A stretch of DNA of 64,000 bases from Candidatus Adlerbacteria bacterium (GTDB lineage Bacteria > Patescibacteriota > Minisyncoccia > Phycocordibacterales > SBAW01), in assembly GCA_963749085.1 (NCBI GenBank), contig CAVVLG010000002.1, forward strand, positions 370,085 through 434,084. Reading direction: 5' to 3'. The position numbers and the translations under genes are program-made. This document shows, in pieces, positions 1,842 to 61,653 of the stretch. Each line of letters opens with the position of its first letter. The stretch's first letter is position 1. Below the pieces are notes generated by a model, which ran no database searches, was not told the DNA's origin, and was given only the letters and a program-made list of their open reading frames with translations.

Positions 1842-1966
1842 GAACGATAAAACTTTTGTTTACATAGAGAGTTCGGCTTTACCGCTTTTAAGTTTAACTG
1901 GACTTTCATACTATTTGATGTAAATAGAAGTAAATTCTGTGGACAGAATGCGCAGTACAAGGGCAA

Positions 1967-2505
1967 TTTTAACTTTATTTTGAGGGTTAAAATAACAAAA
2001 AAAAGAATATAAAAAATTAAAAATATATATTCAACAAAATCGGATTCTCGTAAAAAATTAAATAGAAAGTGGATATAAATTATAAGCTTTATATTATGGT
2101 TATATCGGCTGTGCCAGGCGATATCTCGTCTAAACTTTGACAGAATCTTGAATAAAAAACGCGCATAAAAATTTGTTACTAACCATAGTTAAATTTGATA
2201 TCATTGAGATCAATTTTTTCCTATTGTAACCTTATTGTTACGTACACACGCTTCTCTTTTACCGATTTTTAATTTGACTCACTCTTATTAATGAGTCCCT
2301 ATAATCAATTTGTTGCATCTGCTGCTTTGACACCAAATATATAATACCCGAGATATCCTTAAATTCGAGGCTTAATTTAAAAATCTCGGATACATTAGAC
2401 CAGTAGTATGAATCTGCGTATATCCTTATTTTTAATTTGGAACCTTCGGAAAATTCCTTAAAAACAGAATATTTGACGGATTAATACAATGATGCCGAAA
2501 CAGCA
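1967..2505. promoter_or_regulatory. Markedly AT-rich non-coding spacer between two minus-strand genes; probable promoter/5' leader region of the large surface-protein gene
   Basis: No ORF >60 aa; long A/T runs and many TATAAT/TTGACA-like hexamers; flanked by gene end at 2506 and gene start at 1841. Confidence 0.3.
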
Positions 2506-3222
2506 CTAAAATGAGTACCTAGCGCTTGCTGGCTGACTTCCCTCCACAGTCGTTACCGAACTCAACTTAGCGGAGAGAAGGGTAACTAACCCAAAGAATA
2601 TGCCGCCGATAACAAGTAAGGTTCCAATCCGTACCGCCATTATACGCCACTTAGCCGGCGAATAATGTTTTTTCTCTATAATGGTGATCGCCTCGGCATC
2701 CCTCTTCCACATAGGAGCAGTGGTTATGGGTACACGTTGTATGGGAGGGAAAAAGGGCGAAGTATCGACCACATAGCGTAAACCCCCATGGCTTTCGTTT
2801 CTTTGTTCAGAAACTTTATTTACCGCGATATGATGCATCTCAGGATCTTTTTCTATCTTTTCTGCAACCAATGCCGCGATTTCCTTTTTTAGCTCTTCAA
2901 CTTTTATTTCAACGCTCTGCTCTTTTTCTTTTTCTTGAATTCTCGAAGCATGCGGTTCTACTACTTCTGGTAAGGATTCTTTGATAGCTGGCATTTTCAA
3001 TACATCCTTCGAGCCGTGTATATGGGGAGAAGCTTCTTTCCCGAGATATTCGGTGAGCGAGTCCTCATTTACATACCATGCCCTGCCGATTTTTTGACCT
3101 TCAACTTTACCAGCGCGTACCAACTGTCCAATATAGTCTGGGTGATATTTATGTGCTTTCCCAGCACGTCGAGACGATATGTACCGCTTGCCCGAGATTT
3201 CTAGCTCATCCATGCCCCCCAA
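2506..3222 (-). CDS. Membrane-tethered HTH protein: N-terminal excisionase/MerR-like HTH, E/K-rich coiled-coil linker, C-terminal TM helix
   Basis: 238-aa ORF; N-terminus YISSRRAGKAHKYHPDYIGQLVRAGKVEGQKIGRAWYVNEDSL is paralogous to the N-terminus of the 1..1841 gene; EKEKEQSVEIKVEELKKEIAALVAEKIEK linker; hydrophobic IMAVRIGTLLVIGGIFFGLVTLL near C-terminus. Confidence 0.5.
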   Translation of the reverse strand: MGGMDELEISGKRYISSRRAGKAHKYHPDYIGQLVRAGKVEGQKIGRAWYVNEDSLTEYLGKEASPHIHGSKDVLKMPAIKESLPEVVEPHASRIQEKEKEQSVEIKVEELKKEIAALVAEKIEKDPEMHHIAVNKVSEQRNESHGGLRYVVDTSPFFPPIQRVPITTAPMWKRDAEAITIIEKKHYSPAKWRIMAVRIGTLLVIGGIFFGLVTLLSAKLSSVTTVEGSQPASARYSF

Positions 3223-3228
3223 GTATAC

Positions 3229-4638
3229 CTAGGAGAGAATTTTTTGTATAGCTGACTGTAATGTCTGAGGATTAGCTGAGCCTCTGGTTTCTTTCATCCC
3301 CTGCCCCACCAGGAACTGGAGGGCCGCTTCTTTACCAGCCTTATAATCGGCGGCGACCTCTGGATGTGCATCAATCACCTTTTGCGCGACTGCCGCGAGT
3401 ATACCTTCATCGCTTTGTTGTATAAGATTTTTCGCGCGCGCGATCACTTCGGGTTCCTCCTCCGACACAATCATCACCTGCAACGTATCCTTCGCCCCAC
3501 GCGAAGAAAGGAGTCCTGTGGATACCAGGTCAATCAAGAGAGCAAATCTTTTGGCATTCTGTGCGGTAAGCCAGGACCGTGTCATCTCGGCCTTTTCTAT
3601 CTTGCCGGCTATGTCGCTTGCAAGGTAATTCGCCAGTAGCGAGGGCACCGTACTATCAGCAGGGGTTGAGAATGCAAGTGCGTTGTCGAAAAAATCTCCA
3701 AGCGCACTATCGCGGACGAACATTTCCACATCATCGGACTTAAGGCCGAGGTCAAGATATCTTTTCCGGCGTTGTCCAGGCAGCTCAGGAACTTGCAACC
3801 GGGTAAACCCTTTCACCTCAGAGACGAGGAGTTTCGGTACGTCTGGATCCGGAAAGTAACGGTAATCATGAGACGATTCTTTCTTGCGCTGTGAAAAGGT
3901 TTCTTCTTTCTGCTCGTCCCAACCGCGCGTTTCTTGCACAACGTCTATGCCCTGCTCCAGCAGTTTCTGCTGCCGCTCCAGTTCATAGGCGATAGCCCGC
4001 TCAAGCGAACGAAAGGAATTGAGATTTTTGACCTCTACCTTGGTACCGAGCATGTCATCGTTGCTCACAGATATATTCGCTTCGACGCGCATTTCACCTT
4101 TCTCCATATTGGCCTCCCCCACCCCGAGATACCGCAGGAGCAATTGCAACTCCCGGGCAAAGGCACCGGCCGCTTCTGTGTCGTGTATCACCGGCTCGGT
4201 GACCAATTCCATCAAGGGTACCCCCGCACGATTGTAATCGACCAAACTTCTCTCCCCTTCATGCTGGGAGCGTGCGGTGTCTTCTTCCAGATGTATACGC
4301 GTCAGCGCAACACCGCGCAGCGACCCACCGACTACTAGTGGATATTGATACTGGCTTATTTGGTAGCCTTTGGGTATATCGGGATAGAAATAATTTTTTC
4401 TATCAAACTCGCTGAAATCAGCAGGCACACTGCCGAGTGCCTCGCCCACGAGTAAGACCTTGTGCACTGCTTCCTTATTTATGACCGGCAGAGTCCCCGG
4501 ATGGGCCGTGCATACCGGACAAATATTCGTATTGGCTTTCTTTTCGTTCGGATCATTGAGGCATGCGCAAAACATCTTGGTTCTGGTTTTGAGCTCCGCA
4601 TGAATCTCAAGGCCTATCGTGGCACGGTAGTCGCTCAT
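3229..4638 (-). CDS. gatB: Asp-tRNA(Asn)/Glu-tRNA(Gln) amidotransferase subunit B
   Basis: 469 aa; MSDYRATIGLEIHAELKTRTKMFCAC...CPVCTAHPGTLPV N-terminal GatB signature, full-length. Confidence 0.95.
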   Translation of the reverse strand: MSDYRATIGLEIHAELKTRTKMFCACLNDPNEKKANTNICPVCTAHPGTLPVINKEAVHKVLLVGEALGSVPADFSEFDRKNYFYPDIPKGYQISQYQYPLVVGGSLRGVALTRIHLEEDTARSQHEGERSLVDYNRAGVPLMELVTEPVIHDTEAAGAFARELQLLLRYLGVGEANMEKGEMRVEANISVSNDDMLGTKVEVKNLNSFRSLERAIAYELERQQKLLEQGIDVVQETRGWDEQKEETFSQRKKESSHDYRYFPDPDVPKLLVSEVKGFTRLQVPELPGQRRKRYLDLGLKSDDVEMFVRDSALGDFFDNALAFSTPADSTVPSLLANYLASDIAGKIEKAEMTRSWLTAQNAKRFALLIDLVSTGLLSSRGAKDTLQVMIVSEEEPEVIARAKNLIQQSDEGILAAVAQKVIDAHPEVAADYKAGKEAALQFLVGQGMKETRGSANPQTLQSAIQKILS

Positions 4639-45850: not shown

Positions 45851-46450
45851 ATGGCTATGCCAGAGACACGAACGGAGTTGCTCGAGGTGTTAATCAAAAG
45901 CCTCCAGCCGGAGGAGAAAATTGAGGAGCAAAAAAGCTACCGTTACGTTATCTATGCCCGCAAATCAACCGATGATAAAGAAAAACAAGTACGCTCACTA
46001 TCCGACCAGATCGCCGAGTGCAGAGAATATGCCGAAAGAAATGGACTTAGGGTCGGGAAAGACGATGTAATTCAGGAGTCGGAAAGCGCAAAACAGGCTG
46101 ATACGCGCCCGAAATTCCGCATGATGCTCGAGACACTAAAGGCGGGCAAGTACGACGGCATCCTCGCATGGCACCCCGACCGCCTCGCGCGCAACATGAA
46201 AGACGCTGGAGAAATTATAGATCTGCTCGACAAACACATCATCAAAGCGCTCAGGTTCGTGAGTTTTTCCTTCGAAAATACGCCGAGTGGCAAGATGCTC
46301 CTCGGGATTACCTTCGTGTTGTCAAAACAATATAGCGATCAACTAAGTGAGAATGTGAGCCGTGGCAACAAGCGCAGTATCGAGGAGGGCAAATACGTCG
46401 GTCGGGCGAAACATGGTTATTATAAAGACCCCAGTGGCTATCTCCGCCAG
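45851..46450 (+). pseudogene. Large serine recombinase, N-terminal fragment (resolvase catalytic domain + start of recombinase domain) truncated at tRNA-Leu
   Basis: YVIYARKSTDDKEKQVRSLSDQ (catalytic Ser), WHPDRLARN; ...GKYVGRAKHGYYKDPSGYL begins recombinase domain; ORF track extends to 46558 only by reading through the antisense of tRNA-Leu. Confidence 0.65.
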
Positions 46451-46532
46451 TGGGCATGGGGAGACTCGAACTCCCAAGTCTTGCGACATACGCTTCTGAG
46501 ACGTACGCGTATACCAATTCCGCCACATGCCC
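46451..46532 (-). tRNA. tRNA-Leu: tRNA-Leu (anticodon CAG), class II with 13-nt variable arm
   Basis: Hand-folded cloverleaf: GGGCATG/CATGCCC acceptor, anticodon stem TACGT/GCGTA with loop CTCAGAA, T-arm GGGAG-TTCGAGT-CTCCC; no encoded CCA. Confidence 0.75.
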
Positions 46533-46929
46533 GTGATCTTTACCTTACACCAAAATAGGTGATGCAGGACGAATGCCTTTAGCCGGTAGTTTCGGCATTG
46601 ACAGGTTTGACTAACTGCCCTGCATGTGGACAAGCTGTGGAAAAACTGGTGATAAAAGCTCGTTCACAGACTTTACATAAGACGTGTATATTATGGCGGT
46701 GTACACCCGGTAGGTTCTGAGAAGCTGCGTTCTTCCTGCAGTTTCTGAAGTCGCGGGAGAGGAAGGGGCAGTCGGGTCCGTGACTGCATCTGGCGTATTG
46801 AGCCTACTCTGTTACGGGTGTACCTCGGCTGTCCCTTCCATTCAAACAGAGGGTTCCCGTTTGTACCGGCATCGTGTACACCTGTGCCGGTACTGCCAGG
46901 AGCCCGGATAGTCGGCATAGCGTACACCT

Positions 46930-48898
46930 ATGTCCCCTTCCCTGGAACCCCAAGGTTACACGCTGCCGGTAGGCACCAACTTATACGTATCTTTTATGCG
47001 CACGATACGTCAACAGGATATCGTTTCTTTTCTTGCCGTCTTTATTTCCATACTGGTCGCGATCAAATTAAACCAGTACATCTTTTTTCATTTCAATACC
47101 AGCCCGGCGATCATTTTTCTGCCGACAGGTATCGCGCTGGCGGCGGTCTATCTGGGAGGCTATCGCATGTGGGTACCTATAGCCGCTGCATGGTTTCTTG
47201 GCTCGGTGACCAGTTTCTCGCACCCTACTCTCGTAGTGGATGCCGCGGCCACGGTCGGCTACACGCTTGAAGCGGTCATCGGCGGGTATGCACTTGCACG
47301 CCTGAAATTTGTAGGTGATCTGGCACGCACCCGTGACGCCTTTATACTCATCGCCGCTTCCTTGTTGCTTCCCGTCATCGCGCCAAGCATCACCGCGAGT
47401 GTACAGTGGCTGACCCATGCGCTCCCCAGCTCAGTGTGGGTGACGTGGAGCCGCGCGTGGGCCGGAGGCGCACTGAACATACTCGTGTTATTGCCGCTCA
47501 TCACCACCTGGTATAGAGATCGTACAACAAAAACTTTTAGAAAACTGCTTGAAATTACTCTGGCTCTCCTCGCCCTCGCGTTCGTTACCTATCTGGTCTT
47601 TTGGAGCCCGCTTGTGCAGGCTAATGGATTCATTGTGTTGTATGCGCTCTTTGCTATCTTGTTTTGGATAGGATTACGGATGCACCCCAGAATTATTACG
47701 ACTGCCGTGTTCCTAGTCATGCTGCTCAGCTTCGCCGGTAGCCTCATTGCCCGCCCCACCACAACAACGAAGCTTGATCAACAGCTGCTTTCCGATGAAT
47801 TGTTTATCGTTCTCATCGTCCCCATATTTTTAATTCTCGCCGCATTGGTGGAAGAGCGTCGGGTGAAAGAGCGGGAACTTGAAGAAGCGATCGATAAGCT
47901 TTCGCAGGAAGACCAGGCAAAAAATGAATTCCTGGCGACGCTTGCGCATGAGTTGCGCAACCCCCTGGCCCCGATAGTGAGTTCGCTTGAACTCATGAGA
48001 CTGGAGGCTCGGCAGTTGGCTCGACCTAATCTTATGCAGCTCATTGACGTCACCGACCGGTATAATGCGATGATTGTTCATTTACTTGATGATCTTTTGG
48101 ATATTTCCCGCATATCACACAGGAAGTTCAAGCTCCAAAAGGAAAGCTTGGAGTTGCGCCCAGTTGTCGAACACGCGGTACGGACGGTCGATGCTATGTA
48201 CAAAGCCAACAACCACACGCTCTCCGTATCAATGCCGGAGGAGACATTATGGATCGAGGCGGACCCCCTGCGGCTAAGGCAGATCCTTATCAATCTCCTC
48301 AACAATGCCGCAAAATATACCAACCCAGGAGGGAATATTGTATTAAGCGTCGTGTTTGACCCGGATCGTGGCTTGCGCATCAGTGTGAGAGATAACGGGG
48401 TGGGGATCGAACCGCACATGCTGAAGAAAATCTTCGAGCCGTTCGTGCAGTCGGATGAGAGCAGGTCGGGGCTCGGCATTGGACTTTCACTGACTAATCA
48501 TCTGGTGAACCTTCACGATGGCGTAGTGTGGGCGGAGAGCGAAGGATTGGGCAGAGGAAGCGATTTCATCGTAGTCTTGCCCGGCGCTGACAGAGTGCGG
48601 TTGCCACTTCGGGTAGCAACCCCAAAACGCCGCCGAAGAGAATTTCCTTTCATCGGAAAAAGGAGCCAACGAAAACGCTCTATTCTCATTGTTGATGACA
48701 ACAAAGCCGCGGCAGAGAGCCTCGGCAAACTGCTGGAGCACGGCAGTCATACCGTCGCGTTTGCCTATGACGGGTCGAGTGCGATTGCAAAAATGAAGAA
48801 TGCCGAAGCGGACGCGGTACTGCTCGACATTGAACTTCCTGATATGGACGGATATGAGGTCGCACGAAGTTTGCGGCAAGAACATGGTTACAATTCTC
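46930..48898 (+). CDS. Hybrid sensor histidine kinase (MASE1-like membrane sensor, HisKA, HATPase_c, C-terminal receiver) - receiver domain interrupted by IS insertion
   Basis: ORF 46930..48927; EFLATLAHELRNPLAPI (H-box), GLGIGLSL, receiver start RSILIVDDNKAAAESL...LDIELPDMDGYEVARSLRQEHGYNSL then IS; more likely start MRTIRQQ at 46996. Confidence 0.8.
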
Positions 48899-48965
48899 TA
48901 GAACCAATCTCAAAAATACCGTTGTAGACTAAAGGCACAGGGCGTTACCCGTAATTTGCCTGCCC

Positions 48966-49508
48966 ATGCCTCTCACCAACGAGCAGTGGAGCGTCATCGC
49001 TCCGTTTGTCACACCCCTCAAGCGTTTGGAAACCCGCGGCCGTCCCCGGCAGGACGACCGCAAGATACTGGAAGGTATCCTCTGGGCACTGAAGACCGGC
49101 GCCCAGTGGAAGCACCTGCCGAAAGACTACCCGCCCTACCAGACCTGCCATCGCAGGTTCCAGCAGTGGGTGGAGAGCGGCGCCTTTGACCGCATCGTCG
49201 AAGCCCTGGCCATGGACATGGAATACCGGGGGCGCATCAAGCTCAGGAGCTGCTTTCTCGATGCCACCTTCGCGGGGGCAAAAAAGGGGGTCTTGGCGTG
49301 GGACCCACGAAGCGTGGGAAAGGCACCAAGATCATGGCGATTGCGGACGAAGGCTCTCTTCCAGTCGCCGTCTATGTGGCCTCTGCTTCTCCGAGCGAAG
49401 TCCGGTTGGTTGAAGACACGCTTGCCCGGCGATTTACCCGACAGAATCCGCTTCGCCTCACGGCTGACCGAGCATATGATTCCGATCCGCTGGATGGAAC
49501 GCTCCTGA
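48966..49508 (+). CDS. IS5-family transposase OrfA (N-terminal DUF4096-like part)
   Basis: 180-aa ORF; slippery heptamer A AAA AAG at 49280..49286 allows -1 shift into OrfB. Confidence 0.75.
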   Translation: MPLTNEQWSVIAPFVTPLKRLETRGRPRQDDRKILEGILWALKTGAQWKHLPKDYPPYQTCHRRFQQWVESGAFDRIVEALAMDMEYRGRIKLRSCFLDATFAGAKKGVLAWDPRSVGKAPRSWRLRTKALFQSPSMWPLLLRAKSGWLKTRLPGDLPDRIRFASRLTEHMIPIRWMERS

Positions 49509-49738
49509 ACAAATACCGCATCAAACTCATTTCACCGCATCGCAGAGGCCGGGTGCGCAGAGCAACACAGGACGGCAGGGCGCTGCGCTCCTACAAGCGC
49601 CGGTGGAAGATTGAGCGGCTGTTCGCGTGGATGCACAACTGGAGAAAGCTCGTGACTCGCTACGAATACAAACTGCAGAACTTTGCCGCCTTCGTGAAGC
49701 TCGCGTGCATCATGCTATTACTCAAACATTATTTTTGA
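49298..49738 (+). CDS. IS5-family transposase OrfB (DDE domain), expressed as OrfAB fusion by -1 frameshift
   Basis: 146-aa ORF in -1 frame relative to OrfA; predicted fusion ...DATFAGAKKGGLGVGPTKRGKGTKIMAIADEG... Confidence 0.75.
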   Translation: MGPTKRGKGTKIMAIADEGSLPVAVYVASASPSEVRLVEDTLARRFTRQNPLRLTADRAYDSDPLDGTLLNKYRIKLISPHRRGRVRRATQDGRALRSYKRRWKIERLFAWMHNWRKLVTRYEYKLQNFAAFVKLACIMLLLKHYF

Positions 49739-49749
49739 GACTGGTTCTA

Positions 49750-49923
49750 GTACTTGTTGCGCTCACGGGCTACGGACAGGAAGAGGATAAAATAAAAGCG
49801 CAAGAGGCCGGATTCAATCATCACCTGACCAAGCCTGTTAGTATTGCAGATGTCGAAGCTATCCTCGCGAAGGATACATCCAACCCCCCCCGGCACGCGG
49901 ACGACAATTCTTTAACTAAGTAG
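49750..49923 (+). pseudogene. 3' fragment of the interrupted histidine-kinase receiver domain
   Basis: Removing IS plus one TA restores ...LRQEHGYNSLVLVALTGYGQEEDKIKAQEAGFNHHLTKPVSIADVEAIL... in the kinase frame. Confidence 0.8.
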
Positions 49924-50080
49924 GTCACTCTGTTCGCCCAATCCATCAATCTTTATGCCTCTCATGGGCTGCGCAGATACACGCCATACACAAAATACTA
50001 CGCTCCACTACGGGCAGCTTTTCTGATTATTGAAATAGCCTCCCCAGCCCAAACACCCAATAAGGTATACTAGTCTGCAT

Positions 50081-50575
50081 ATGCTAGAGCAATATGCATC
50101 GTTCTTCGCAGCGAGTTCGCAGGCATCGGCCGCTTTGGTCGGGCTTCTTTTTGTTGCACTTTCTATTGACGTCGACCTCGAGCGGGGATTTCGGTTCAAG
50201 CAATTTGCATTTTCTGAAACCGCGTTCATATCGCTTGGGGGTATCTTTATCATCTCACTTTTGGCGCTATTGCCCTCTGGCCTGTTGCTGATGACGGGTG
50301 CCAGTATCGTCCTTTCTGTCATCGGCATTTGGGGCTTGCTGCGGCGCACACACCCCCAGATCAAGCTGGTGCTGCTGCCAGTGGATTTTTGGCAGGTCTT
50401 TGTGACCGTCGGCGTCTATATATGGCTCGCGGGCACAAGCCTATGGTTATTGACGGTGGAAGAGTCAGTAACTTTGTTAAATATATTCTGCATGTTGCTG
50501 GGGATACTATATGTGCTTTCTCTCATACGTGCATGGCGCTCACTTCTTATCATCAAACATTATATGTCTAATTAG
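50081..50575 (+). CDS. Hypothetical membrane protein (4-5 TM)
   Basis: 164-aa hydrophobic ORF. Confidence 0.45.
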   Translation: MLEQYASFFAASSQASAALVGLLFVALSIDVDLERGFRFKQFAFSETAFISLGGIFIISLLALLPSGLLLMTGASIVLSVIGIWGLLRRTHPQIKLVLLPVDFWQVFVTVGVYIWLAGTSLWLLTVEESVTLLNIFCMLLGILYVLSLIRAWRSLLIIKHYMSN

Positions 50576-50646
50576 GGGGAGATTTACCGCTTCATATTCG
50601 CTACAGCACCCCCATAAGGATTTCTTGGGCGATTTCAATGTACCAG

Positions 50647-50772
50647 ACTTAGGCGTCCCGGTCGGGGGCACTGGCATGCGCGGATATTTGAATGACGTTC
50701 GAACCGTCATTCTATAGGGGAAGACTGAGTTTAGCTATAAGCCGCTTACGCTGATGGCAAAGGTGACACAGC
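50647..50772 (+). repeat. ~125-bp repeat element, copy A (direct repeat of 54659..54784, ~80% identity), contains hairpin GAATGACG-TTCGAAC-CGTCATTC
   Basis: By-eye alignment cccggtcgggggcacYggcRtgYgcggatatttgaatgacgtYcgaaccRtcattcta...ctgagttt...cttacg...atggcRaagg. Confidence 0.6.
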
Positions 50773-50834
50773 TTCGTTAAACTGTCCCGCACAGTCCAAA
50801 TAGATACTTTCGCCAGTCGTGATATACTTAAAGT

Positions 50835-51014
50835 ATGAATAAGACTCGCAAGAAAAATGTCTCTTTGAGTGACCTCTACCAGGAAGTCCGGGCCTTGCGC
50901 CGGGACGTGTCGGTGTTCATACCCACCGAGTCCCTAGACGATTACAAAAACAAAACGGAAATAGTTGCCGCACATCGCGATGCGCGAAAACAAGCTCGAG
51001 CCAGAGAGGTATAG
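50835..51014 (+). CDS. Putative antitoxin (59 aa), partner of RelE/ParE toxin
   Basis: Hand-translated MNKTRKKNVSLSDLYQEVRALRRDVSVFIPTESLDDYKNKTEIVAAHRDARKQARARGV; below ORF-track length cutoff; stop 2 bp before toxin ATG. Confidence 0.45.
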   Translation: MNKTRKKNVSLSDLYQEVRALRRDVSVFIPTESLDDYKNKTEIVAAHRDARKQARAREV

Positions 51015-51016
51015 CT

Positions 51017-51271
51017 ATGCGGATTATCCGCACACTGAAGTTTGAAAAGATGCCCGAACGGCTGCCCGCATCCGTACAAAAGGCGTACGTCGAGCAAGAA
51101 ACGATTTTGCAGGGGAATCCCAAAGATCCTCGCCTCCATTTGAAGAAATTGCAAGGGATTTATGACACCTATTCCTTCCGCATAACCCGCTCTTACCGAG
51201 CACTTTTCATTTGGGAAGTTAATACCGTCTGGCTGTTCGCCATCGGTGATCGAAAAGACATTTATCGATAG
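51017..51271 (+). CDS. relE: Type II toxin, RelE/ParE superfamily
   Basis: 84 aa; KDPRLHLKKLQGIYDTYSFRITRSYRALFIWEVNTVWLFAIGDRKDIY. Confidence 0.7.
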   Translation: MRIIRTLKFEKMPERLPASVQKAYVEQETILQGNPKDPRLHLKKLQGIYDTYSFRITRSYRALFIWEVNTVWLFAIGDRKDIYR

Positions 51272-51301
51272 AGGTTTCGATCTCACTAGAGCCGTTGATG
51301 A

Positions 51302-53167
51302 CTACTGACCCAAAACCCCTCTCGTCAATGGGCCCACATAGCCCGCTACAGGAGATATATTGTTGAGCATTTGGTACTGCATGACCGCGTTTCGCGTCAG
51401 CGGCCCGAAATAGCCGGTCACCAATGCCTCAGGATAGTAGCCATTGTTTGCCAGGTGGGTCTGAAGCGCAATCACGTCAGGGCCTTGCACCCCTTGATAT
51501 AAGTCGCGGGAAAGCATGAGGGGCGTGGTCACTGCGGCTTCCGCGGCAGGGATATCAACCTGTTCTTCGCCGGCTTGCGGGGTGACGTTAAACCGCGAGG
51601 CAGTGGTGAATCTGCCGTATTGGTCATAGGAGTAAAGCGCATAGTGATATTCGACGCCGTTTTCAACGTCAGTATCCGTAAAAGTCGTTGAGGGGCCGTC
51701 GTAAATGATATCGCCATCAATGCGCGAGAGTACTGCGTCGCTGCCTTCTTTTTTGACGATAACCGTATGGATAGTTCCGTTTTGGATGCCGGTGTCTTTG
51801 AGCCAGTCGAAGGAGACCTCCCCGTCGAGTGGCGTAACGTTGAGAAGCAGCGGATGTGAATGCACCACCGGCAGGCCGCCACCTCCCTGGGCCGCTGCCG
51901 CTTGTGCTCCTTGCTCGGCAATAGTTGCCAGGACTTCTGCACTGCTTGAAGCAGTGGGTTCGGAAGATACGGGTTCAGTCGGCGTCGAAGTACCGGAAGA
52001 CAACAATGATTCGGTGGTAAATGTCCTGTCCTTGCCGAATGCTGTGTTTCCGTCGCTGTCGGCAGCGACGATACGGAAGTGATACAAGGTCGAGGGAGTG
52101 AGAGTATTGATAGTTCGACTGTGCGACGTCTGCAACGTTTGGTCGTTTCCAAGAGATGAGCCATAGGACGTGCTCGTCCCGTATTGAATATCGGATGTCG
52201 CCGGTTCAGAAGTTGTCCACGAAATGGTTATCGTCGAGGTTGAAAGAGAACTCGTCGCCACGTTCGAGATGATCGGATATATAGGCGCAGCTTGCACTTT
52301 GAGCGTTGTGAAAGTTTCGGCGAGACTGTACGCCGTTTCGCCGGAAGAGGTTTTTGAGATGGCGCGATAATAATATTTAGTGTTCGGTGTTAATGATGAG
52401 AGAGACGCCGAATGAGATTGGGATATAGGTCCTAAGGCGGTGAGTGAGCCGTAGGTATTGGTTGGGCCGTATTCGACTTGCGAGTCGGCATCCTGGTTAG
52501 TTTGCCATGTGATAGTGGCTGTCGAGGAACTTACTTGTGACGTCTCGGTATTGGAGATTGCCAGAGCGGGCGCCGGGGGAGTCGATGAAGCAGACTCCAT
52601 GTTCTCTGTCGTTGTCGCTGCGGAAGTTGCTTCGGTTTGTGTTGTCTCGTTATTCTCCGGAGTAGAGGTTGCAGCTGTTGAAGTCGATGTCTCTTCAGCT
52701 GGCGGCTCAACTGGCTCCGATACAGGAGTCGCGAGCGTCGTGAATGTCTCATCACCTGTTATGGCCGCCGTCCCCGCGCTGTCTACGACCACGACGCGAT
52801 AGTGGTAGAGGGTCTCCGGTGTGAGATTCTCAAGGACAAATGATGGCGAGGTAGTGAACTCGCTCGTGAGCGGGGTTGAAGCGCCGTACTCCTCAGTGGT
52901 GCCATACTCGACATACCCTTGCACCATCTCATCTGAATTCACATCTATTTCTGCGCTTGTGTCGGTGATATTGGTAACAGAAATGCTTGAAATTGAGGGG
53001 CCGACCGGAGCGGGAGGGGCCATTTCTTCGGTCGGCGGCGGAGTCATTTCCTCTACAGGAGGAGCAGTATCATTGGTAGTATCCGCTGGGAGCGTTTGGG
53101 CAAGAACTGACGCGATTGGGGTAAAGAGAATGGAACAAGAGAGTACTGCGGAGAATATTTTGATCAT
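51302..53167 (-). CDS. Secreted protein: signal peptide, three fibronectin-type-III-like repeats, C-terminal peptidoglycan-binding (PG_binding_1-like) domain
   Basis: 621 aa; MIKIFSAVLSCSILFTPIASVLA; repeated YHYRVVVVDSAGTAAITGDETFTT / YYYRAISKTSSGETAYSLAETFTT / YHFRIVAADSDGNTAFGKDRTFTT; C-terminal DVIALQTHLANNGYY...GYFGPLTRNAVMQYQ. Confidence 0.65.
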   Translation of the reverse strand: MIKIFSAVLSCSILFTPIASVLAQTLPADTTNDTAPPVEEMTPPPTEEMAPPAPVGPSISSISVTNITDTSAEIDVNSDEMVQGYVEYGTTEEYGASTPLTSEFTTSPSFVLENLTPETLYHYRVVVVDSAGTAAITGDETFTTLATPVSEPVEPPAEETSTSTAATSTPENNETTQTEATSAATTTENMESASSTPPAPALAISNTETSQVSSSTATITWQTNQDADSQVEYGPTNTYGSLTALGPISQSHSASLSSLTPNTKYYYRAISKTSSGETAYSLAETFTTLKVQAAPIYPIISNVATSSLSTSTITISWTTSEPATSDIQYGTSTSYGSSLGNDQTLQTSHSRTINTLTPSTLYHFRIVAADSDGNTAFGKDRTFTTESLLSSGTSTPTEPVSSEPTASSSAEVLATIAEQGAQAAAAQGGGGLPVVHSHPLLLNVTPLDGEVSFDWLKDTGIQNGTIHTVIVKKEGSDAVLSRIDGDIIYDGPSTTFTDTDVENGVEYHYALYSYDQYGRFTTASRFNVTPQAGEEQVDIPAAEAAVTTPLMLSRDLYQGVQGPDVIALQTHLANNGYYPEALVTGYFGPLTRNAVMQYQMLNNISPVAGYVGPLTRGVLGQ

Positions 53168-53358
53168 AATTTTGAAATCTCTTTTAAGTCTTTGTCCGGC
53201 AGGTAGAGAATAAGTAAACCGATAATAATTCCGCCAATAGCTGTCCAGATATGGCTACCGCCAAAGAGATACACATCCATTTTGTCGAGCAGATACCAAA
53301 TGCCACGCCATACCAGCACTATCCCGACCACTATTGCTATAATCCGTACAGTCTTCAT
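53164..53358 (-). CDS. Small membrane protein (2 TM)
   Basis: 64-aa hydrophobic ORF, ATGA overlap with downstream gene. Confidence 0.4.
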   Translation of the reverse strand: MKTVRIIAIVVGIVLVWRGIWYLLDKMDVYLFGGSHIWTAIGGIIIGLLILYLPDKDLKEISKL

Positions 53359-53399
53359 AGCCGTAAGTGTAGCACTCTAATGTCTGCTACACTGCAGGT

Positions 53400-53699
53400 A
53401 TGTTGCTGAAGGAGTTTATACATTTTTTGAAAGAGTATAAGGTCGTGTCCCTAGCAGTGGCTTTTATCATGGGTACGGCAGCTACTAACTTGGTTGACTC
53501 TTTGGTAAAGAATATATTCCTTCCTTTGCTGGCACCACTCCAAGCGGCGGAGACTTGGGATAAAGCGGTGCTCTCTATAGGACCGGTCACACTAACCTAT
53601 GGAGCGTTCCTCGACGAGCTTATTAATTTTATTATCCTCGGCTTCCTGGTGTTCCTGTTGGCGCGAAAGCTGCTCACCATGGAAAAGGAAGGAAAATAA
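53400..53699 (+). CDS. mscL: Large-conductance mechanosensitive channel MscL
   Basis: 99 aa; LKEFIHFLKEYKVVSLAVAFIMGTAATNLVDSLVKNIFLPLL ... TYGAFLDELINFIILGFLVFLL. Confidence 0.85.
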   Translation: MLLKEFIHFLKEYKVVSLAVAFIMGTAATNLVDSLVKNIFLPLLAPLQAAETWDKAVLSIGPVTLTYGAFLDELINFIILGFLVFLLARKLLTMEKEGK

Positions 53700-53702
53700 T
53701 CT

Positions 53703-54347
53703 ATGACATTTCTTTTTGAAACGAGGCCTTTCAGTGAGGAGAGCAAGCGCGCAGCGGTGGACAAGCTGCTTGAAGCGGCCTTGCCTGATAGAGACTTTTA
53801 TTTATTGGTCATCGGCGCGGCGCTCTTTGCGCTTGGCGGCATCGCTTTGGACAGTATTCCGGTCCTTATCGGTGCCATGATAGTGGCTCCACTTGCCGCA
53901 CCCATCTTGGCGCTGGGACTTGGCATTGCGACGGGCGATTGGTATCTTGCTGTGCGTTCGGTCATAACCTTGATAGCGGCATCGCTTGCCGCGGCGATCG
54001 TGGCAGCGATAGCGGCACACCTGCTTCCGCCGTTTAGCATAGATGGTACCTTTATATCCTTTGTGGCACACCCTCTGTATGACGCTGCTATCGCCTTTAT
54101 AGCCGGTGCCATAGCTGCATATGGCTATGTGCGGGCAAAAGCAGGCGGAGCATTGACTGGAATCGGCGTTGCGGTATCACTTATGCCACCTTTGGTTGCC
54201 AGTGCGCTTGCGTTTGGCACGCTTGATGTGCCGCTCCTGAAGGAATCATCGCTTATCTTTATATTGAACGTAGTGGGTATACTCGTAGGTTCTATACTCG
54301 TCTTTTCCCTATTCGGGATGCACGCGTATTACGAAAGGAAATCCTAG
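53703..54347 (+). CDS. DUF389-like hydrophobic membrane protein
   Basis: 214 aa, Ala/Gly-rich TM helices; family assignment tentative. Confidence 0.45.
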   Translation: MTFLFETRPFSEESKRAAVDKLLEAALPDRDFYLLVIGAALFALGGIALDSIPVLIGAMIVAPLAAPILALGLGIATGDWYLAVRSVITLIAASLAAAIVAAIAAHLLPPFSIDGTFISFVAHPLYDAAIAFIAGAIAAYGYVRAKAGGALTGIGVAVSLMPPLVASALAFGTLDVPLLKESSLIFILNVVGILVGSILVFSLFGMHAYYERKS

Positions 54348-54550
54348 CCGCTTTTATTTAAAAAGAAAAAGATAGAGGGACAGGAGCACCAGCACAATAA
54401 GTGAGGTTTGCATCACGAGTGCAGAATCCCACAGCGATACACCGAACACGATTACTGCGCCGATAAGCGGGAGCACTCCTGTGGTGATGTTTTTCATACA
54501 GCTAAGTATATCAGGTTATTTTTAGAGCTCGTACTCATCTTCTTCTATCT

Positions 54551-54566
54551 TATGACGGCGCTAGGG
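54551..54566. repeat. 16-nt copy of the tRNA-Ile 3' end (gcgctagggatcgaac): att-site-like remnant
   Basis: Identical to 57957..57972 within the intact tRNA-Ile gene. Confidence 0.45.
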
Positions 54567-54658
54567 ATCGAACTAAGAAAACGCTTTCGTTGAGCCATAA
54601 AAAATTTTGAGCAAAAAAGGGCGAACTGGACATGTCCAAAAAATGGCTCTGTTGAGCC

Positions 54659-54784
54659 ATCCCGGTCGGGGGCACCGGCGTGTGCGGATATTTGAATGAC
54701 GTCCGAACCATCATTCTACGGGGAAAAACTGAGTTTGGGTATAAACCACTTACGTTAATGGCGAAGGCAGTGCAGGGTGATTGA
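54659..54784 (+). repeat. ~125-bp repeat element, copy B (see 50647..50772)
   Basis: Same as copy A. Confidence 0.6.
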
Positions 54785-54810
54785 GTCTACCCAGCCAGAT
54801 TTTGTTGAAA

Positions 54811-55041
54811 TCAACTTAACCACTCTCCTTCAGGTATGCCTGACTGTTTGATTATCGAGCTTAATGTCTTAGGGTGGATGGTATCAGATCCATGATATTG
54901 CACATGGGTCATGCGTAGCTGTCCATCCTTGAATCCCCGAAAATAATGGTGGCTTCCCCGAATGTGATGGGGAACGAAACTATTCGCCTTTAGAAATTTC
55001 TCTACATCCTTGAAGGTCCAGTTTGATTTACCTCTAGGCAT
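54811..55041 (-). CDS. hicA: Type II toxin HicA (mRNA interferase)
   Basis: 76 aa; KDVEKFLKANSFVPHHIRGSHHYF...IHPKTLSSIIKQSGIPEGE. Confidence 0.8.
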   Translation of the reverse strand: MPRGKSNWTFKDVEKFLKANSFVPHHIRGSHHYFRGFKDGQLRMTHVQYHGSDTIHPKTLSSIIKQSGIPEGEWLS

Positions 55042-55386
55042 TTACACAGTGGCAAGACTTGCAACACCCGCTTTGTAGATGCCCGAAAGCGGGGATAGAA
55101 CGTTCCCCTTGTCTTTTACTGCTTGTGTTTGTGTGGCGGATGCCCACTTTGATTCATATTCCTCCTCCACGTCCTGATTGAGAATTGAATTGACCTGTTG
55201 CGGACGAAAACCTTTCAATTCCCTTGCTGACTCAAGGTATCCCTGCACAGCCTCCTGCAGTTCAAATTCAACTATTTTCGGGTCAATCCCCGTGACCACG
55301 ATGTTGAATTCAAGCGCCACGCCCACCCAGGAGTCGCCATCCTTAAAGATCATCCAACGGTATACACCACTTTTTGCCGTATTCAT
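55042..55386 (-). CDS. hicB: HicB antitoxin (UPF0150/RNase H-like fold)
   Basis: 114 aa; YRWMIFKDGDSWVGVALEFNIVVTGIDPKIVEFELQEAVQGYLESAREL; immediately upstream of hicA. Confidence 0.65.
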   Translation of the reverse strand: MNTAKSGVYRWMIFKDGDSWVGVALEFNIVVTGIDPKIVEFELQEAVQGYLESARELKGFRPQQVNSILNQDVEEEYESKWASATQTQAVKDKGNVLSPLSGIYKAGVASLATV

Positions 55387-55603
55387 GGGATCAGTCTACC
55401 ACAAACGAGCCCCTCCCGTGAAGGAGGGGCTCTCGGAGGCCGAAGCCACTTGTAGTCAGACGGTACACCTTGGCAGATGAAAAGCAAGTGTATCCAGGGT
55501 TGCCACAATCGAGAGAGAAAGCCGGTCGTCTGCGAGATGAATCTCACAAATCGACCGGTCTTTTTGCCGTGCGTCTCAACTCTATCATTTCCCCCAATGA
55601 GGC

Positions 55604-55816
55604 TTAGATGCGGATCATTCTTCCGGGACGGCGGATGGCGTACGCAGGTGGCTTGGGGTGTCGGTGTAGCGGATAGCGAAGCATTTTGTAGACGTCAAAA
55701 ATTCTTTTGAATTCTTTTTTCACGCCAGTGAAGGTCTTTGCCTGCACGGCGATATCGCGTTCGATGCATTGACCGACCCACCATCTGGATTCGCGAAAGA
55801 CGATTGCGCGCATATC
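55604..55816 (-). CDS. HicB-like antitoxin-domain protein (short)
   Basis: ORF 55604..55927; MRAIVFRESRWWVGQCIERDIAVQAKTFTGVKKEFKRIF resembles HicB core. Confidence 0.35.
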   Translation of the reverse strand, partial: DMRAIVFRESRWWVGQCIERDIAVQAKTFTGVKKEFKRIFDVYKMLRYPLHRHPKPPAYAIRRPGRMIRI

Positions 55817-56051
55817 ACGACCCATTTTCGATAGAGTTGACGATGTTATAACCAGGCCAATTGGATTTGCCGTCCTCTTTAAACCACCACACTGAGGACA
55901 TAAGGCCTCCTTGCGTTGACGTGTCAACGCCGATTCTTCGGATGATCCGCGTGCAGTCTGGAAAGTTCGGTGTGCCTTTTGGGTGTGCCTCTACTAGTTC
56001 ACATGGTTCCCCGTTTTCAAACTGGATTGACTTTGTCCAATCGAGTGGCAT
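55815..56051 (-). CDS. Hypothetical small protein (possible toxin partner)
   Basis: 78-aa ORF overlapping start of HicB-like gene. Confidence 0.3.
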   Translation of the reverse strand: MPLDWTKSIQFENGEPCELVEAHPKGTPNFPDCTRIIRRIGVDTSTQGGLMSSVWWFKEDGKSNWPGYNIVNSIENGS

Positions 56052-56198
56052 GGTTCTCCTCCAAAGTGTTGGTTGCTTCTAAAGAAAATATACCATGGTC
56101 AGATTAAATTCTTGTCCCCTGGTTGCACAGGGTCGCGGGAAAATCCCGAATGTAGTTCCAGTATAGCATTAAGGATTTAACCATCAAAAAACACCACG

Positions 56199-56384
56199 AT
56201 GAGATACGCTCACTTAGCCCCCTCAACGCTTCGAGCCGCCATCAACCAGTTGAACCCGAAAGCAATGATTTCTGGAAGTTTTGGGCAACCGGTGGTCAAC
56301 CGATGGATTGAGACAGTGCAACAAGAAACAAAAAATCCTTTACCTGCAACGCAAAATTTACAAAAAAATTTGTGCGGGCGCTAG
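56199..56384 (+). pseudogene. Tyrosine-integrase 3'-terminal fragment (~50 aa, contains catalytic-Tyr region MRYAHLAPSTLRAAI)
   Basis: Near-identical to the C-terminus of the 57238..57921 integrase remnant; followed at 56380..56410 by a degraded copy of the tRNA-Ile 3' end. Confidence 0.6.
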
Positions 56385-56410
56385 GATCGAACCCAGTCGC
56401 AACAATTCTG
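56380..56410 (-). repeat. Degraded copy of tRNA-Ile 3' end (T-arm + acceptor; ggttcgatcc-tagcgcccgcac): att-site remnant
   Basis: Compare with 57952..57980. Confidence 0.55.
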
Positions 56411-56736
56411 AAGAAGCGCCAATCGAGCAAGAGAAATAAGGATTAATGGCTTAAACTAAAGGATTACTGACAAAATGTAAGATTACCAATCGTACTCACT
56501 AACTACCAAGTTTAACCAACTTTTATCACTTTTTGGGCAACCCGTGGGCAACCGCGGAATTATCAAAAAGGAACAGTACAGGGGGAAAAGTGATAAAGAT
56601 TGTGTGGAAAACACTGCTAGGCGGTGGTTTTTATGCTGTGTGTTTTTTACCGGCTTTGGTGGGTGACTAAGTGAACACTCTCTCAAGGGAAATCCGCCGT
56701 TCTGCTACGTTAAAGAGAGTTTCGGCCACAACCGAA

Positions 56737-57006
56737 TCAAAACTTCAATTTATATATCCAGTCGTGCGGACCGATGGTGAGAAAGAGCGCCGTATTGCCG
56801 TCGATAAAGCGTAGCGCGATGCGGTAGCTCCTGTCGACACGGATACTCCAAATCTCCTTGCTCTTGGGTTCAAGCTTCTCGGTGTGGAGCGACGGATAAA
56901 AGGGATTTGTGCGGAACAAAGCTTCCTGCTTCTCGGCCTTCTTTTGAACAGCTGTAGGTAGTTTGAGATACCGCTTTCGGAACTCATCCGTTACCACCAC
57001 GTCCAT
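56737..57006 (-). CDS. Type II toxin, RelE/ParE superfamily
   Basis: 89 aa; HTEKLEPKSKEIWSIRVDRSYRIALRFIDGNTALFLTIGPHDWIYK. Confidence 0.6.
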   Translation of the reverse strand: MDVVVTDEFRKRYLKLPTAVQKKAEKQEALFRTNPFYPSLHTEKLEPKSKEIWSIRVDRSYRIALRFIDGNTALFLTIGPHDWIYKLKF

Positions 57007-57015
57007 AAACAGCGA

Positions 57016-57222
57016 CTATTTTCGCCTAAGCTCGCGCAGCGAGGTGACTGTATATACCCGCCCGGCGCGGTAGTCCCGCTCGGCCCGCTCGATACTGCGC
57101 AGAAAATCAGGATTGTAGAACCCGAGGTTGGAGGCAAGACGCTCCAGCCGATCGGCGTCGAGCTCCACTAGCACCTTCTTCCCCTTCGATCCAGGGCGGA
57201 TAGTTATCATCGTCTTGCTCAT
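57016..57222 (-). CDS. Putative antitoxin partner
   Basis: 68-aa ORF directly upstream of toxin. Confidence 0.4.
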   Translation of the reverse strand: MSKTMITIRPGSKGKKVLVELDADRLERLASNLGFYNPDFLRSIERAERDYRAGRVYTVTSLRELRRK

Positions 57223-57237
57223 AGAGCTAGTATAGCA

Positions 57238-57921
57238 TAGTCCCCTTGTACGGTCATTTTTACGCGTACCTGGCTCAAATGTCCTCCACCGAAAACCGAT
57301 TATCTGTCGAAAGACGAATGCGGATTACTGCTATCTCATGCACGCGGCGTCGTATACGAGATGCTACTACTCGCCCTCCGCACGGGCATGAGGCGCGGTG
57401 AAATTATCGGCCTGCAGTGGTCATCCGTTGATTGGCAGACCCAGAACATCACGGTGCGGCATTCATATTGCGAGTACACGAAAGAGTTAGGCTCAACGAA
57501 AAGCAACCGCGAACGGCATATCCCTATGGACGCGGACGTATACGCAGTCCTCTTCAACAGAAAGCGCGACACGGGCTATGTATTCGTGGACGCAGATAAT
57601 AAGCACTTCAATGGCAGATATCTTGAGCGTCGACTAAAAGAACTCTGTAACCAAGTTGGATTGCGCAATATCGGATGGCATACGCTGCGACACACGTTTG
57701 CTTCGCACTTAGCGATGAGTGGAGTACCGCTCAACGCCGTGCAAGCACTCCTAGGTCACTCCGCCATCACTACCACGATGCGATACGCGCACTTAGCACC
57801 CTCAACGCTTCGAGCCGCTATCGACCAGCTGAACCCAAAATCAATGATTACTGACAGTTTTGGGCAACCGGTGGGCAACCAGTGGGTTGAGACATTGCAG
57901 CAAAAAACAAAAAATCCATAA
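57238..57921 (+). pseudogene. Tyrosine recombinase/integrase, 5'-truncated (catalytic domain only; no N-terminal arm/core-binding domain or start codon)
   Basis: In-frame ...YLSKDECGLLLSHARGVVYEMLLLALRTGMRRGEIIGLQW...WHTLRHTFASHLAMSGVPLNAVQALLGHSAITTTMRYAHLAP (R..HxxR..Y); frame opens right after a stop at 57235. Confidence 0.7.
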
Positions 57922-57951
57922 CGTGCAACACAAAATCGACAAAAAAATTTG

Positions 57952-58024
57952 TGCGGGCGCTAGGGATCGAACCTAGGACCTTTCGAGTATCAGTCGAATG
58001 CTCTACCAACTGAGCTACACCCGC
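57952..58024 (-). tRNA. tRNA-Ile: tRNA-Ile (anticodon GAU)
   Basis: Hand-folded: GCGGGTG/CGCCCGC acceptor, D-arm GCTC-AGTTGGTA-GAGC, anticodon stem TTCGA/TCGAA loop CTGATAC, T-arm CTAGG-TTCGATC-CCTAG. Confidence 0.85.
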
Positions 58025-58187
58025 AGTTTCGAAACTATATCAAAGGAAAAGTGCCTTTACCAGTTATCCACACATTTCTCAAATTCGGCTAAAAAACCCT
58101 TGCACTCTGAGCTGAGGGGGGTATAGTAAAAAAGTTTTCTGAGGATTGTCCTCAAATTTTGTCAGTAACTAACAATGCACATCAGAG

Positions 58188-58631
58188 ATGCAAACAACAA
58201 GTGCGCTCCGGGAAATAGTCCCGAGTAGCGCGGTAATCGGGCTTGATGACGAAGCAATTCGTCGCGATTATGAGGAGCAGGGCGCGTGGGGTCTTCTCAC
58301 GTCTATCGACCTGCATGAGTGCGATAGAGAGACAGTGCGCGATGCCGAGGCTATAAAACGCTTCGTGGTTGAGTTATGCGAGCGTATCGACATGAAGCGT
58401 TTTGGAGAGTGCACGGTCGTCAATTTCGGCGAAGATGAGCGCGTGGCGGGCTTTTCGATGTTTCAACTCATCGAAACCTCCTGCATCTCGGCACACTTTG
58501 CCAACCAGACGAACACAACCTATCTCGATATTTTCTCGTGTAAATACTATACGCCAGTCGAGGCGGCTGAGTTCGCCAAGGAATTCTTTGGTGCCTCAGA
58601 GTATAACCTGACGTATACGCTCAGGAAGTAG
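58188..58631 (+). CDS. speH: S-adenosylmethionine decarboxylase proenzyme (pyruvoyl-dependent, class 1B)
   Basis: 147 aa; WGLLTSIDLHECD, FSMFQLIETSCISAHF (E-S/S processing site), YLDIFSC. Confidence 0.85.
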   Translation: MQTTSALREIVPSSAVIGLDDEAIRRDYEEQGAWGLLTSIDLHECDRETVRDAEAIKRFVVELCERIDMKRFGECTVVNFGEDERVAGFSMFQLIETSCISAHFANQTNTTYLDIFSCKYYTPVEAAEFAKEFFGASEYNLTYTLRK

Positions 58632-58644
58632 AGGGGAAGTAAGA

Positions 58645-58680
58645 GCCCCGGCAAGCAAATGCCGGGGCCTTTTGGTGTTT
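58645..58680 (+). terminator. Rho-independent terminator after speH
   Basis: GCCCCGGCAagcaaaTGCCGGGGC followed by cttttggtgttt. Confidence 0.6.
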
Positions 58681-58732
58681 GGGGTTGCTCACCCCTTACA
58701 GATCGAGTTTTTCCTTTTTGTCAGATAAGTTT

Positions 58733-59583
58733 TAGAACCAGTCTCAAAAATAATGTTTGAGTAATAGCATGATGCACGCGAGCTTCACGAAGGCGGCAAA
58801 GTTCTGCAGTTTGTATTCGTAGCGAGTCACGAGCTTTCTCCAGTTGTGCATCCACGCGAACAGCCGCTCAATCTTCCACCGGCGCTTGTAGGAGCGCAGC
58901 GCCCTGCCGTCCTGTGTTGCTCTGCGCACCCGGCCTCTGCGATGCGGTGAAATGAGTTTGATGCGGTATTTGTTCAGGAGCGTTCCATCCAGCGGATCGG
59001 AATCATATGCTCGGTCAGCCGTGAGGCGAAGCGGATTCTGTCGGGTAAATCGCCGGGCAAGCGTGTCTTCAACCAACCGGACTTCGCTCGGAGAAGCAGA
59101 GGCCACATAGACGGCGACTGGAAGAGAGCCTTCGTCCGCAATCGCCATGATCTTGGTGCCTTTCCCACGCTTCGTGGGTCCCACGCCAAGACCCCCTTTT
59201 TTGCCCCCGCGAAGGTGGCATCGAGAAAGCAGCTCCTGAGCTTGATGCGCCCCCGGTATTCCATGTCCATGGCCAGGGCTTCGACGATGCGGTCAAAGGC
59301 GCCGCTCTCCACCCACTGCTGGAACCTGCGATGGCAGGTCTGGTAGGGCGGGTAGTCTTTCGGCAGGTGCTTCCACTGGGCGCCGGTCTTCAGTGCCCAG
59401 AGGATACCTTCCAGTATCTTGCGGTCGTCCTGCCGGGGACGGCCGCGGGTTTCCAAACGCTTGAGGGGTGTGACAAACGGAGCGATGACGCTCCACTGCT
59501 CGTTGGTGAGAGGCATGGGCAGGCAAATTACGGGTAACGCCCTGTGCCTTTAGTCTACAACGGTATTTTTGAGATTGGTTCTA
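58733..59583 (-). mobile_element. IS5-family insertion sequence, copy 2 (inverted relative to copy 1), flanked tTA...TAg
   Basis: OrfA 58974..59516 and OrfB 58744..59184 identical to copy 1. Confidence 0.85.
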
Positions 59584-59742: not shown

Positions 59743-59773
59743 AAAAATCACCCCACATGGGGTAATTTTTGTT
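59743..59773. terminator. Bidirectional hairpin terminator (ACCCCACATGGGGT flanked by A-run and T-run), ~250 nt downstream of 16S 3' end
   Basis: acaaaaatcACCCCAcaTGGGGTaatttttgtt. Confidence 0.5.
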
Positions 59774-60019
59774 AAAAACTGAATACGTAATTGAGTCCAC
59801 ACCTAAGCAAACACCTTTCTCTTGTTCCGCTCTTTATCTATTTTCCGTTCTGTACTCCAAAACGTACTCTGTAGATATCAAGTAGCCATACGTCTCTGTA
59901 TTTACATACAGTGGCCAATAACGAATGCGATTTAGAGTTAGCATCATCACTCTACTTTCCTTGCGGAAAATAATCGCCGATTGAGTTGCACCCTCGTACG
60001 AGAGGCACAACACCATTTC

Positions 60020-61478
<1,459 letters not shown>

Positions 61479-61653
61479 GAATATAAGATTCAGTTACGAA
61501 TCTAGACTCGATGAACGGAACAAGAGAAAAGTGTCTTCTCTTGTTTTTCTTGCTTGCTGCCTTTGCCAGTTGAATGGCAAAGGACTTATTTTTTGATCGG
61601 TGTGATCAATTCTTACAATTTTCTCAATTACGTATTCAGTTTTCAACGAACAA

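Follow-up and report, generated by a model that had tools for sequence, protein, structure and literature searches.

We present evidence that, very probably, an 847-bp insertion sequence (IS) of the IS5 family has inserted at a CTAG in an otherwise intact gene for a MASE1-HisKA-HATPase_c-REC hybrid histidine kinase in a Patescibacteria (Parcubacteria/Paceibacteria-like) genome. The gene opens at the ATG at position 46930 on the plus strand of a 64-kb stretch of contig CAVVLG010000002.1, the whole of which is referred to here as the window. Removal of the IS together with one copy of a duplicated TA restores a single open reading frame (ORF) that encodes a complete receiver domain, and a second, identical copy of the IS lies elsewhere in the window. 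The event is of an ordinary kind, the disruption of a gene by a new IS of a known family.

Reconstruction of the interrupted kinase gene

As it stands, the kinase ORF comprises 665 amino acids and ends at 48927, its product terminating in ...LRQEHGYNSL followed by the residues EPISKIPL, which are encoded, with a TAG stop, by the first nine codons of the IS (48901..48927, plus strand). The interruption lies within codons 657-658, and codon 657 (CTA, Leu) holds the left TA of the target-site duplication (48899..48900; original target CTAG), the right TA being found at 49748..49749. The 5' part of the gene (codons 1-657, 46930..48900, plus strand) encodes the MASE1, HisKA and HATPase_c domains and the first ~60% of the receiver, which begins at residue 585. 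Beyond the IS, the orphaned 3' end (codons 658-714 and the stop, 49750..49923, plus strand) encodes the remainder of the receiver, beta4 to alpha5, with the invariant Thr663 and Lys685.

It had originally been predicted, from the letters of the DNA, that the receiver is bisected by an IS and that removing the IS and one TA would restore the ORF. The first of these claims is borne out by the inverted repeats, the TA duplication and the transposase domains described below. The second holds as well: in-silico excision of 849 bp, comprising the IS and one TA (48901-49749 or, equivalently, 48899-49747), yields a 714-codon ORF, 46930..49923, that ends with TAG at 49921-49923. The restored junction peptide, ...LRQEHGYNSLVLVALTGYGQEEDK...SLTK*, is exactly the one quoted in the original prediction; the restored ORF reads ...GYNSLVLVALTGYGQEEDKIKAQEAGFNHHLTKPVSIADVEAIL... 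across the junction, and the DNA of the reconstructed empty allele at that point is ...GGTTACAATTCTCTAGTACTTGTTGCGCT... The result given for the deletion was right, and only its interval, 48899-49749 (851 bp), was off by 2 nucleotides; taken literally, this deletion removes both TAs and produces a frameshift with a stop 12 codons later.

The domain content of the reconstruction was determined with Pfam profiles, and all four domains exceed the curated cut-offs. MASE1 occupies residues 35-311 (PF05231, 48.3 bits against a cut-off of 29.8; profile positions 4-299 of 299), HisKA residues 330-397 with the phospho-acceptor His340 (PF00512, 46.8 bits), HATPase_c residues 445-551 (PF02518, 91.9 bits) and Response_reg residues 585-695 (84.6 bits, profile positions 1-109 of 111), in the order of a hybrid histidine kinase. 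The excision and profile scan that had been proposed as a check raise the receiver match from the 57.2 bits and profile positions 1-68 obtained with the truncated ORF. A complete receiver, as judged by the acidic pair, the Asp, the Thr/Ser and the Lys, is found in the reconstruction only and not in the present ORF.

The orphaned 3' end had been called as part of a separate 98-residue ORF (49627..49923, plus strand), which begins at a GTG inside the IS and runs into the kinase sequence. Its last 57 codons are kinase and match Response_reg profile positions 73-109. The 98-residue ORF is an artefact of ORF calling, because codons 1-41 belong to the IS and are read there in a frame other than that of the transposase; the earlier objection that this ORF mislabels part of the IS as coding continuation was thus correct.

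Database searches returned thousands of kinase homologues, and nearly all of the best 120 share the four-domain order and a length of ~700 residues; the named ones among these come mostly from Parcubacteria, Paceibacterota, Kaiserbacteria and 'Patescibacteria group' genomes. The sole 100% match is the truncated 665-residue form itself, a singleton from a contig of 518,058 bp, and the next best is 62% identical. When aligned with 16 homologues of 42-62% identity, the restored junction (GYNSL, then VLVALTGYGQ) is free of gaps, and the reconstruction satisfies all of the family-invariant columns, including His340, Asn455, Asp488/Gly490/Gly492, Gly514-Gly518, Asp589/590, Asp633, Thr663 and Lys685. 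In tblastn comparisons, homologues from three loci match 46951-48900 and resume at 49765, and so are split exactly at the IS. Since the restored junction is gap-free against the homologues and the tblastn matches divide at the IS, the element entered the gene with single-base precision, as had been claimed.

The MASE1 hybrid kinases of Parcubacteria and Paceibacteria, such as P0022 ('Multi-sensor hybrid histidine kinase [Parcubacteria group bacterium]'), thus have the domain order, approximate length and identity range (42-62%) given above; the reconstruction retains all of their catalytic residues, but the gene in the window is cut after codon 657. The genes flanking it are not syntenic with those at the three homologous loci examined, at which no synteny was found beyond the kinase itself. 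The two closest homologues (62% identity; loci L001 and L002, positions 1-3500) lie near a heme-copper oxidase cluster (COX1, COX2, COX3, COX4_pro), which is noteworthy if those contigs are truly Patescibacteria-like; the window has no such synteny.

The target tetranucleotide is itself strongly under-represented: the window has 57 CTAG sites, where its base composition predicts ~250. Of such sites the restored kinase gene contains just two, one of which is occupied by the IS, and the second copy of the IS lies in a CTAA. On these grounds, target preference is enough to explain the site without selection on the kinase. In the course of insertion, a DDE transposase would cut the target TA with a 2-nucleotide stagger and join the IS ends to it, and repair would then duplicate the TA.

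The insertion sequence and its second copy

The copy within the kinase gene, copy 1, extends from 48901 to 49747 on the plus strand. It is bounded by terminal inverted repeats of 18 nucleotides, 17 of which match: GAACCAATCTCAAAAATA on the left (48901..48918, plus strand) and GAACCAGTCTCAAAAATA, read on the minus strand, on the right (49730..49747). The repeat sequence occurs four times in the window, at both ends of two copies of the element, where 0.07 occurrences would be expected by chance. Copies of the IS could be recognised by the sequence GAACCARTCTCAAAAATA.

The transposase is encoded in two pieces. The first, orfA, extends to a slippery site (48966..49286, plus strand) and carries DUF4096 (PF13340, 96.9 bits) together with the first Asp of the DDE triad, placed by inspection in FLDATF. 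The second, orfB, lies in the -1 frame (49286..49738, plus strand) and carries DDE_Tnp_1 (PF01609, 56.5 bits), which supplies the other two residues of the triad, Asp and Glu. Against the NCBIfam profile NF033580, 'IS5 family transposase', orfA corresponds to positions 5-104 and orfB to positions 119-258. An A_AAA_AAG heptamer at 49280..49286 (plus strand), in frame 0 of orfA, is the predicted site of -1 frameshifting, and 2 nucleotides past it a hairpin is predicted (49289..49333, plus strand; -23.9 kcal/mol, z = -3.58 against shuffled sequences) that likely stimulates the shift. Programmed -1 frameshifting is thereby predicted to join orfA and orfB into a DDE transposase; the modelled fusion of 257 residues scores 222 bits against NF033580, whose cut-off is 110, and spans positions 5-258 of its 258.

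In a protein collection of 5.8 billion clusters, no transposase exceeds 59% identity, and the nearest ones are spread over many phyla. The best plasmid-borne relatives detected by tblastn, in Leptospira and Deinococcus, are ~55% identical; most of the best matches on these plasmids come as two pieces, which suggests that the split reading frame is conserved among the relatives. Under the usual naming practice, the element would count as a new IS. It is a new member of a known family, IS5, and it is apparently still intact.

Within that family the element resembles the IS427 group, a likeness drawn from its length, inverted repeats, duplication size and ORF arrangement rather than from a phylogeny. 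Members of this group are 832-865 bp long with inverted repeats of 13-21 bp and a 2-bp direct repeat, and have two overlapping ORFs with a frameshift motif, the DDE triad being complete in the fusion only (PMC3281130). In each of these features the element described here is like IS1248, ISPaes1 and ISPpa6 of Paracoccus (PMC3281130), with its length of 847 bp, its 18-nucleotide inverted repeats, its 2-bp repeat, its two overlapping ORFs and frameshift motif, and a triad completed only when the two ORFs are fused. Unlike the Paracoccus elements, it resides in a Patescibacteria-like host, and its transposase reaches no more than the 59% identity given above to any protein searched.

Copy 2 (58735..59581, minus strand) is inverted relative to copy 1 and differs from it at none of 847 positions. 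It has a TA duplication of its own (58733-58734 and 59582-59583; target CTAA) and is intergenic, lying 438 bp downstream of the 3' end of a 16S ribosomal RNA (rRNA) gene, in the spacer between that gene and tRNA-Ile. The identity of the two copies, together with the separate duplication, leads us to infer that the element moved recently in this genome, at a time that cannot be dated. As for the ability to transpose, the indications are indirect: identical copies occupy two sites, and a separate duplication flanks each of them. The guanine-plus-cytosine (G+C) content of the IS, 58% against 50.6% for the window, with a third-position G+C of 0.81 in orfA, fits a recently acquired element. The host kinase ORF shows no secondary damage; an orphaned part of just 57 codons, however, makes this intactness a poor guide to the age of the insertion. 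The claim that the insertion is recent accordingly finds support in the identical second copy, the intact host ORF and the composition of the IS, within the limit on dating already stated.

Consequences for the kinase and competing explanations

It had also been claimed that the kinase now lacks its intramolecular receiver. This is true of the segment from beta4 to alpha5, which is lost with the invariant Thr663 and Lys685, but the claim overlooked that ~60% of the domain is kept and that the foreign 8-residue tail EPISKIPL is gained. The alignment of 16 homologues and the solved structures of receivers, among them PleD, CheY and PhoB, place the break after helix alpha3. The truncated product retains the sensor, the domain for dimerisation and His phosphotransfer, and the ATPase domain, and its receiver retains beta1 to alpha3 with Asp589/590 and the phospho-acceptor Asp633. 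Given the established roles of the Thr/Ser and Lys and the (beta/alpha)5 fold of receivers, the half receiver is almost certainly non-functional; it most likely can neither fold nor be phosphorylated, and it may destabilise the protein. Signalling routed through the intramolecular receiver would be lost, and the 665-residue protein would be at best a receiver-less kinase.

The sequences of two family members suggest that a receiver-less kinase is not unthinkable in this family: the homologue P0035 (548 residues) has no receiver domain on record, and P0045 is split by a frameshift. The latter (locus L004, 575..2699) consists of a 536-residue kinase call followed by a receiver ORF that overlaps it by 23 nucleotides. 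We considered P0045 as a natural receiver-less form and rejected it, its kinase and receiver being separated by the frameshift or by a sequencing error. The 64-kb window was found to contain neither an Hpt protein nor another receiver or kinase core, and no conserved phosphorelay partner is adjacent to the homologues at L001 and L002; at L003, an OmpR-type regulator lies 3 kb from the kinase homologue. A scan of the region for promoters and terminators yielded nothing above shuffled expectation.

Several points weigh against the conclusion that a recently mobile IS has inactivated the receiver of this kinase. The empty site is inferred by reconstruction and not observed, since a search of genome and metagenome contig collections for the exact 29-nucleotide restored junction returned no uninterrupted allele, and intact homologues reach at most 62% identity. 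Likewise, a degenerate 23-nucleotide pattern of the inverted repeat detected no further copies of the IS in genome, metagenome and viral contig collections, among which the source genome was not included. Identical repeats of 847 bp within a contig assembled from a metagenome might conceivably arise through consensus polishing, or through a mixture of cells only some of which carry the insertion. Finally, loss of the receiver need not abolish all kinase function, as at least one family member (P0035) lacks a receiver.

The third of these points is the basis of one rival explanation, that the insertion is an artefact of assembly or population structure, present in a sub-population only or a misplaced repeat, so that most cells would carry an intact kinase. 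The source does appear to be a metagenome-type assembly and the two copies are perfectly identical; moreover, orfB is on record from two contigs, and P0122, a fragment of 114 residues identical to orfB residues 1-114, comes from another contig, of 12.5 kb, whose end may have truncated it, as is seen when assemblers break at repeats. We nevertheless regard this explanation as very improbable, as each junction has the duplicated TA that transposition would leave and a repeat misjoin would not create, the flanks rejoin base-exactly into a conserved ORF, and copy 2 has a separate duplication at a different site. An origin of the disruption in the pair of copies itself has next to no probability. 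The identical inverted copies bracket 49750..58734, as would be the case for a composite transposon or if a ~9-kb inversion between them had disrupted the kinase, but each copy has its own TA duplication. Both forms of this explanation were rejected, the DNA to the right of copy 1 being an exact in-frame continuation of the kinase and the excision of copy 1 alone sufficing to restore the ORF. As that sequence continues the kinase in frame, the DNA bracketed by the copies is native and has kept its orientation. The pair could serve as a substrate for a future inversion through homologous recombination.

A different alternative accepts the insertion and holds that it was selected or tolerated as functional, the loss of a receiver that acts as a phosphate sink or gate leaving a plain kinase, for example one that is constitutive towards a separate regulator. 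The kinase core (His340 and the N and G boxes) is wholly intact upstream of the IS, P0035 provides a natural receiver-less homologue, and neither an Hpt protein nor a partner regulator adjoins the gene, here or at the three homologous loci. The preference for rare CTAG and CTAA sites, however, accounts for the position without selection; the receiver is kept in nearly all of the ~120 family members listed, and half a receiver fold ending in eight foreign residues would more probably make the protein unstable than adjust its activity. With a single instance known and no positive support for an adaptive reading, we consider this very unlikely. A broader scenario is in our view very improbable. 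In it, active expansion of the IS is under way in a Patescibacteria genome of small size, the only sensor kinase of the region has been functionally rewired by losing its receiver, and the inverted copies act as a recombination switch able to flip the ~9-kb segment beside the 16S rRNA gene; if this were true, the locus would capture, at one moment, the regulatory and structural change that an IS drives in a minimal-genome episymbiont. The inactivation of a kinase gene by simple IS insertion remains the explanation that we favour. IS inactivation of two-component sensors is familiar from spontaneous gacS mutants in Pseudomonas and from IS insertions in the mgrB/phoQ circuits. The present case is like these in that a mobile element has entered a signalling gene and yields a truncated product, and unlike them in that the host is uncultivated and has an apparently small genome.

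Genomic neighbourhood and significance

The region around the two IS copies contains further features, some of them probable traces of mobile DNA. Immediately upstream of the kinase, an ORF at 45851..46558 (plus strand) encodes a complete Resolvase N-terminal domain, with best NCBIfam matches to the large serine recombinases CcrB and XisF, and has neither a Recombinase nor a zinc-ribbon domain. It overlaps tRNA-Leu(CAG) on the opposite strand (46451..46532, minus strand) and ends there, and by its domain content looks like the remnant of a truncated integrase at a tRNA gene. Just upstream of this recombinase gene there is a full-length match to the LOOT RNA (RF03000; 45520..45646, minus strand; 82.8 bits against a gathering threshold of 46.4), on which a look-up of the literature returned nothing useful. 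Between the kinase and copy 2, a direct repeat of 113 nucleotides (50651-50763 and 54655-54767, 84% identical) brackets ~4 kb that encodes a 621-residue protein with FN3-like repeats and PG_binding_1 (51302..53167, minus strand) and a DUF389 protein (53703..54347); this repeat pair may mark another island boundary.

Near copy 2, the C-terminal fragment of a tyrosine integrase (57361..57921, plus strand; Phage_integrase, 111.8 bits) adjoins the 3' end of tRNA-Ile(GAT) (57952..58024). A repeat of 193 nucleotides (56193-56385 and 57772-57964, 88% identical), comprising the integrase 3' end and the tRNA 3' end, recurs 1.6 kb to the left, and a 24-nucleotide fragment resembling the tRNA 3' end recurs 3.4 kb to the left (54550-54573 and 57949-57972). 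The integrase fragment and the repeated integrase and tRNA 3' ends suggest the presence of tandem, decayed integrative elements at tRNA-Ile. The 16S rRNA gene lies at 60020..61485 (minus strand) and is flanked by inverted repeats (59768-59832 and 61513-61650) that are probably processing stems; copy 2 is situated outside them. No 23S rRNA gene follows tRNA-Ile within the window. On the opposite strand, the 16S/tRNA-Ile spacer also holds a 147-residue ORF (58188..58631, plus strand) that matches AdoMet_dc, S-adenosylmethionine decarboxylase, at 81.8 bits, an unusual occupant of an rRNA spacer.

Nothing in these findings would surprise a specialist, and their main value is for annotation: the ORFs of 665 and 98 residues become a single IS-disrupted kinase pseudogene, and the two ORFs of the IS become one frameshifted IS5-family transposase. 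The locus in addition records an apparently intact, recently mobile IS5-family element in a Patescibacteria-like genome, and a lineage in which a MASE1 hybrid kinase, conserved across Parcubacteria-like genomes, has only just been deprived of its receiver.

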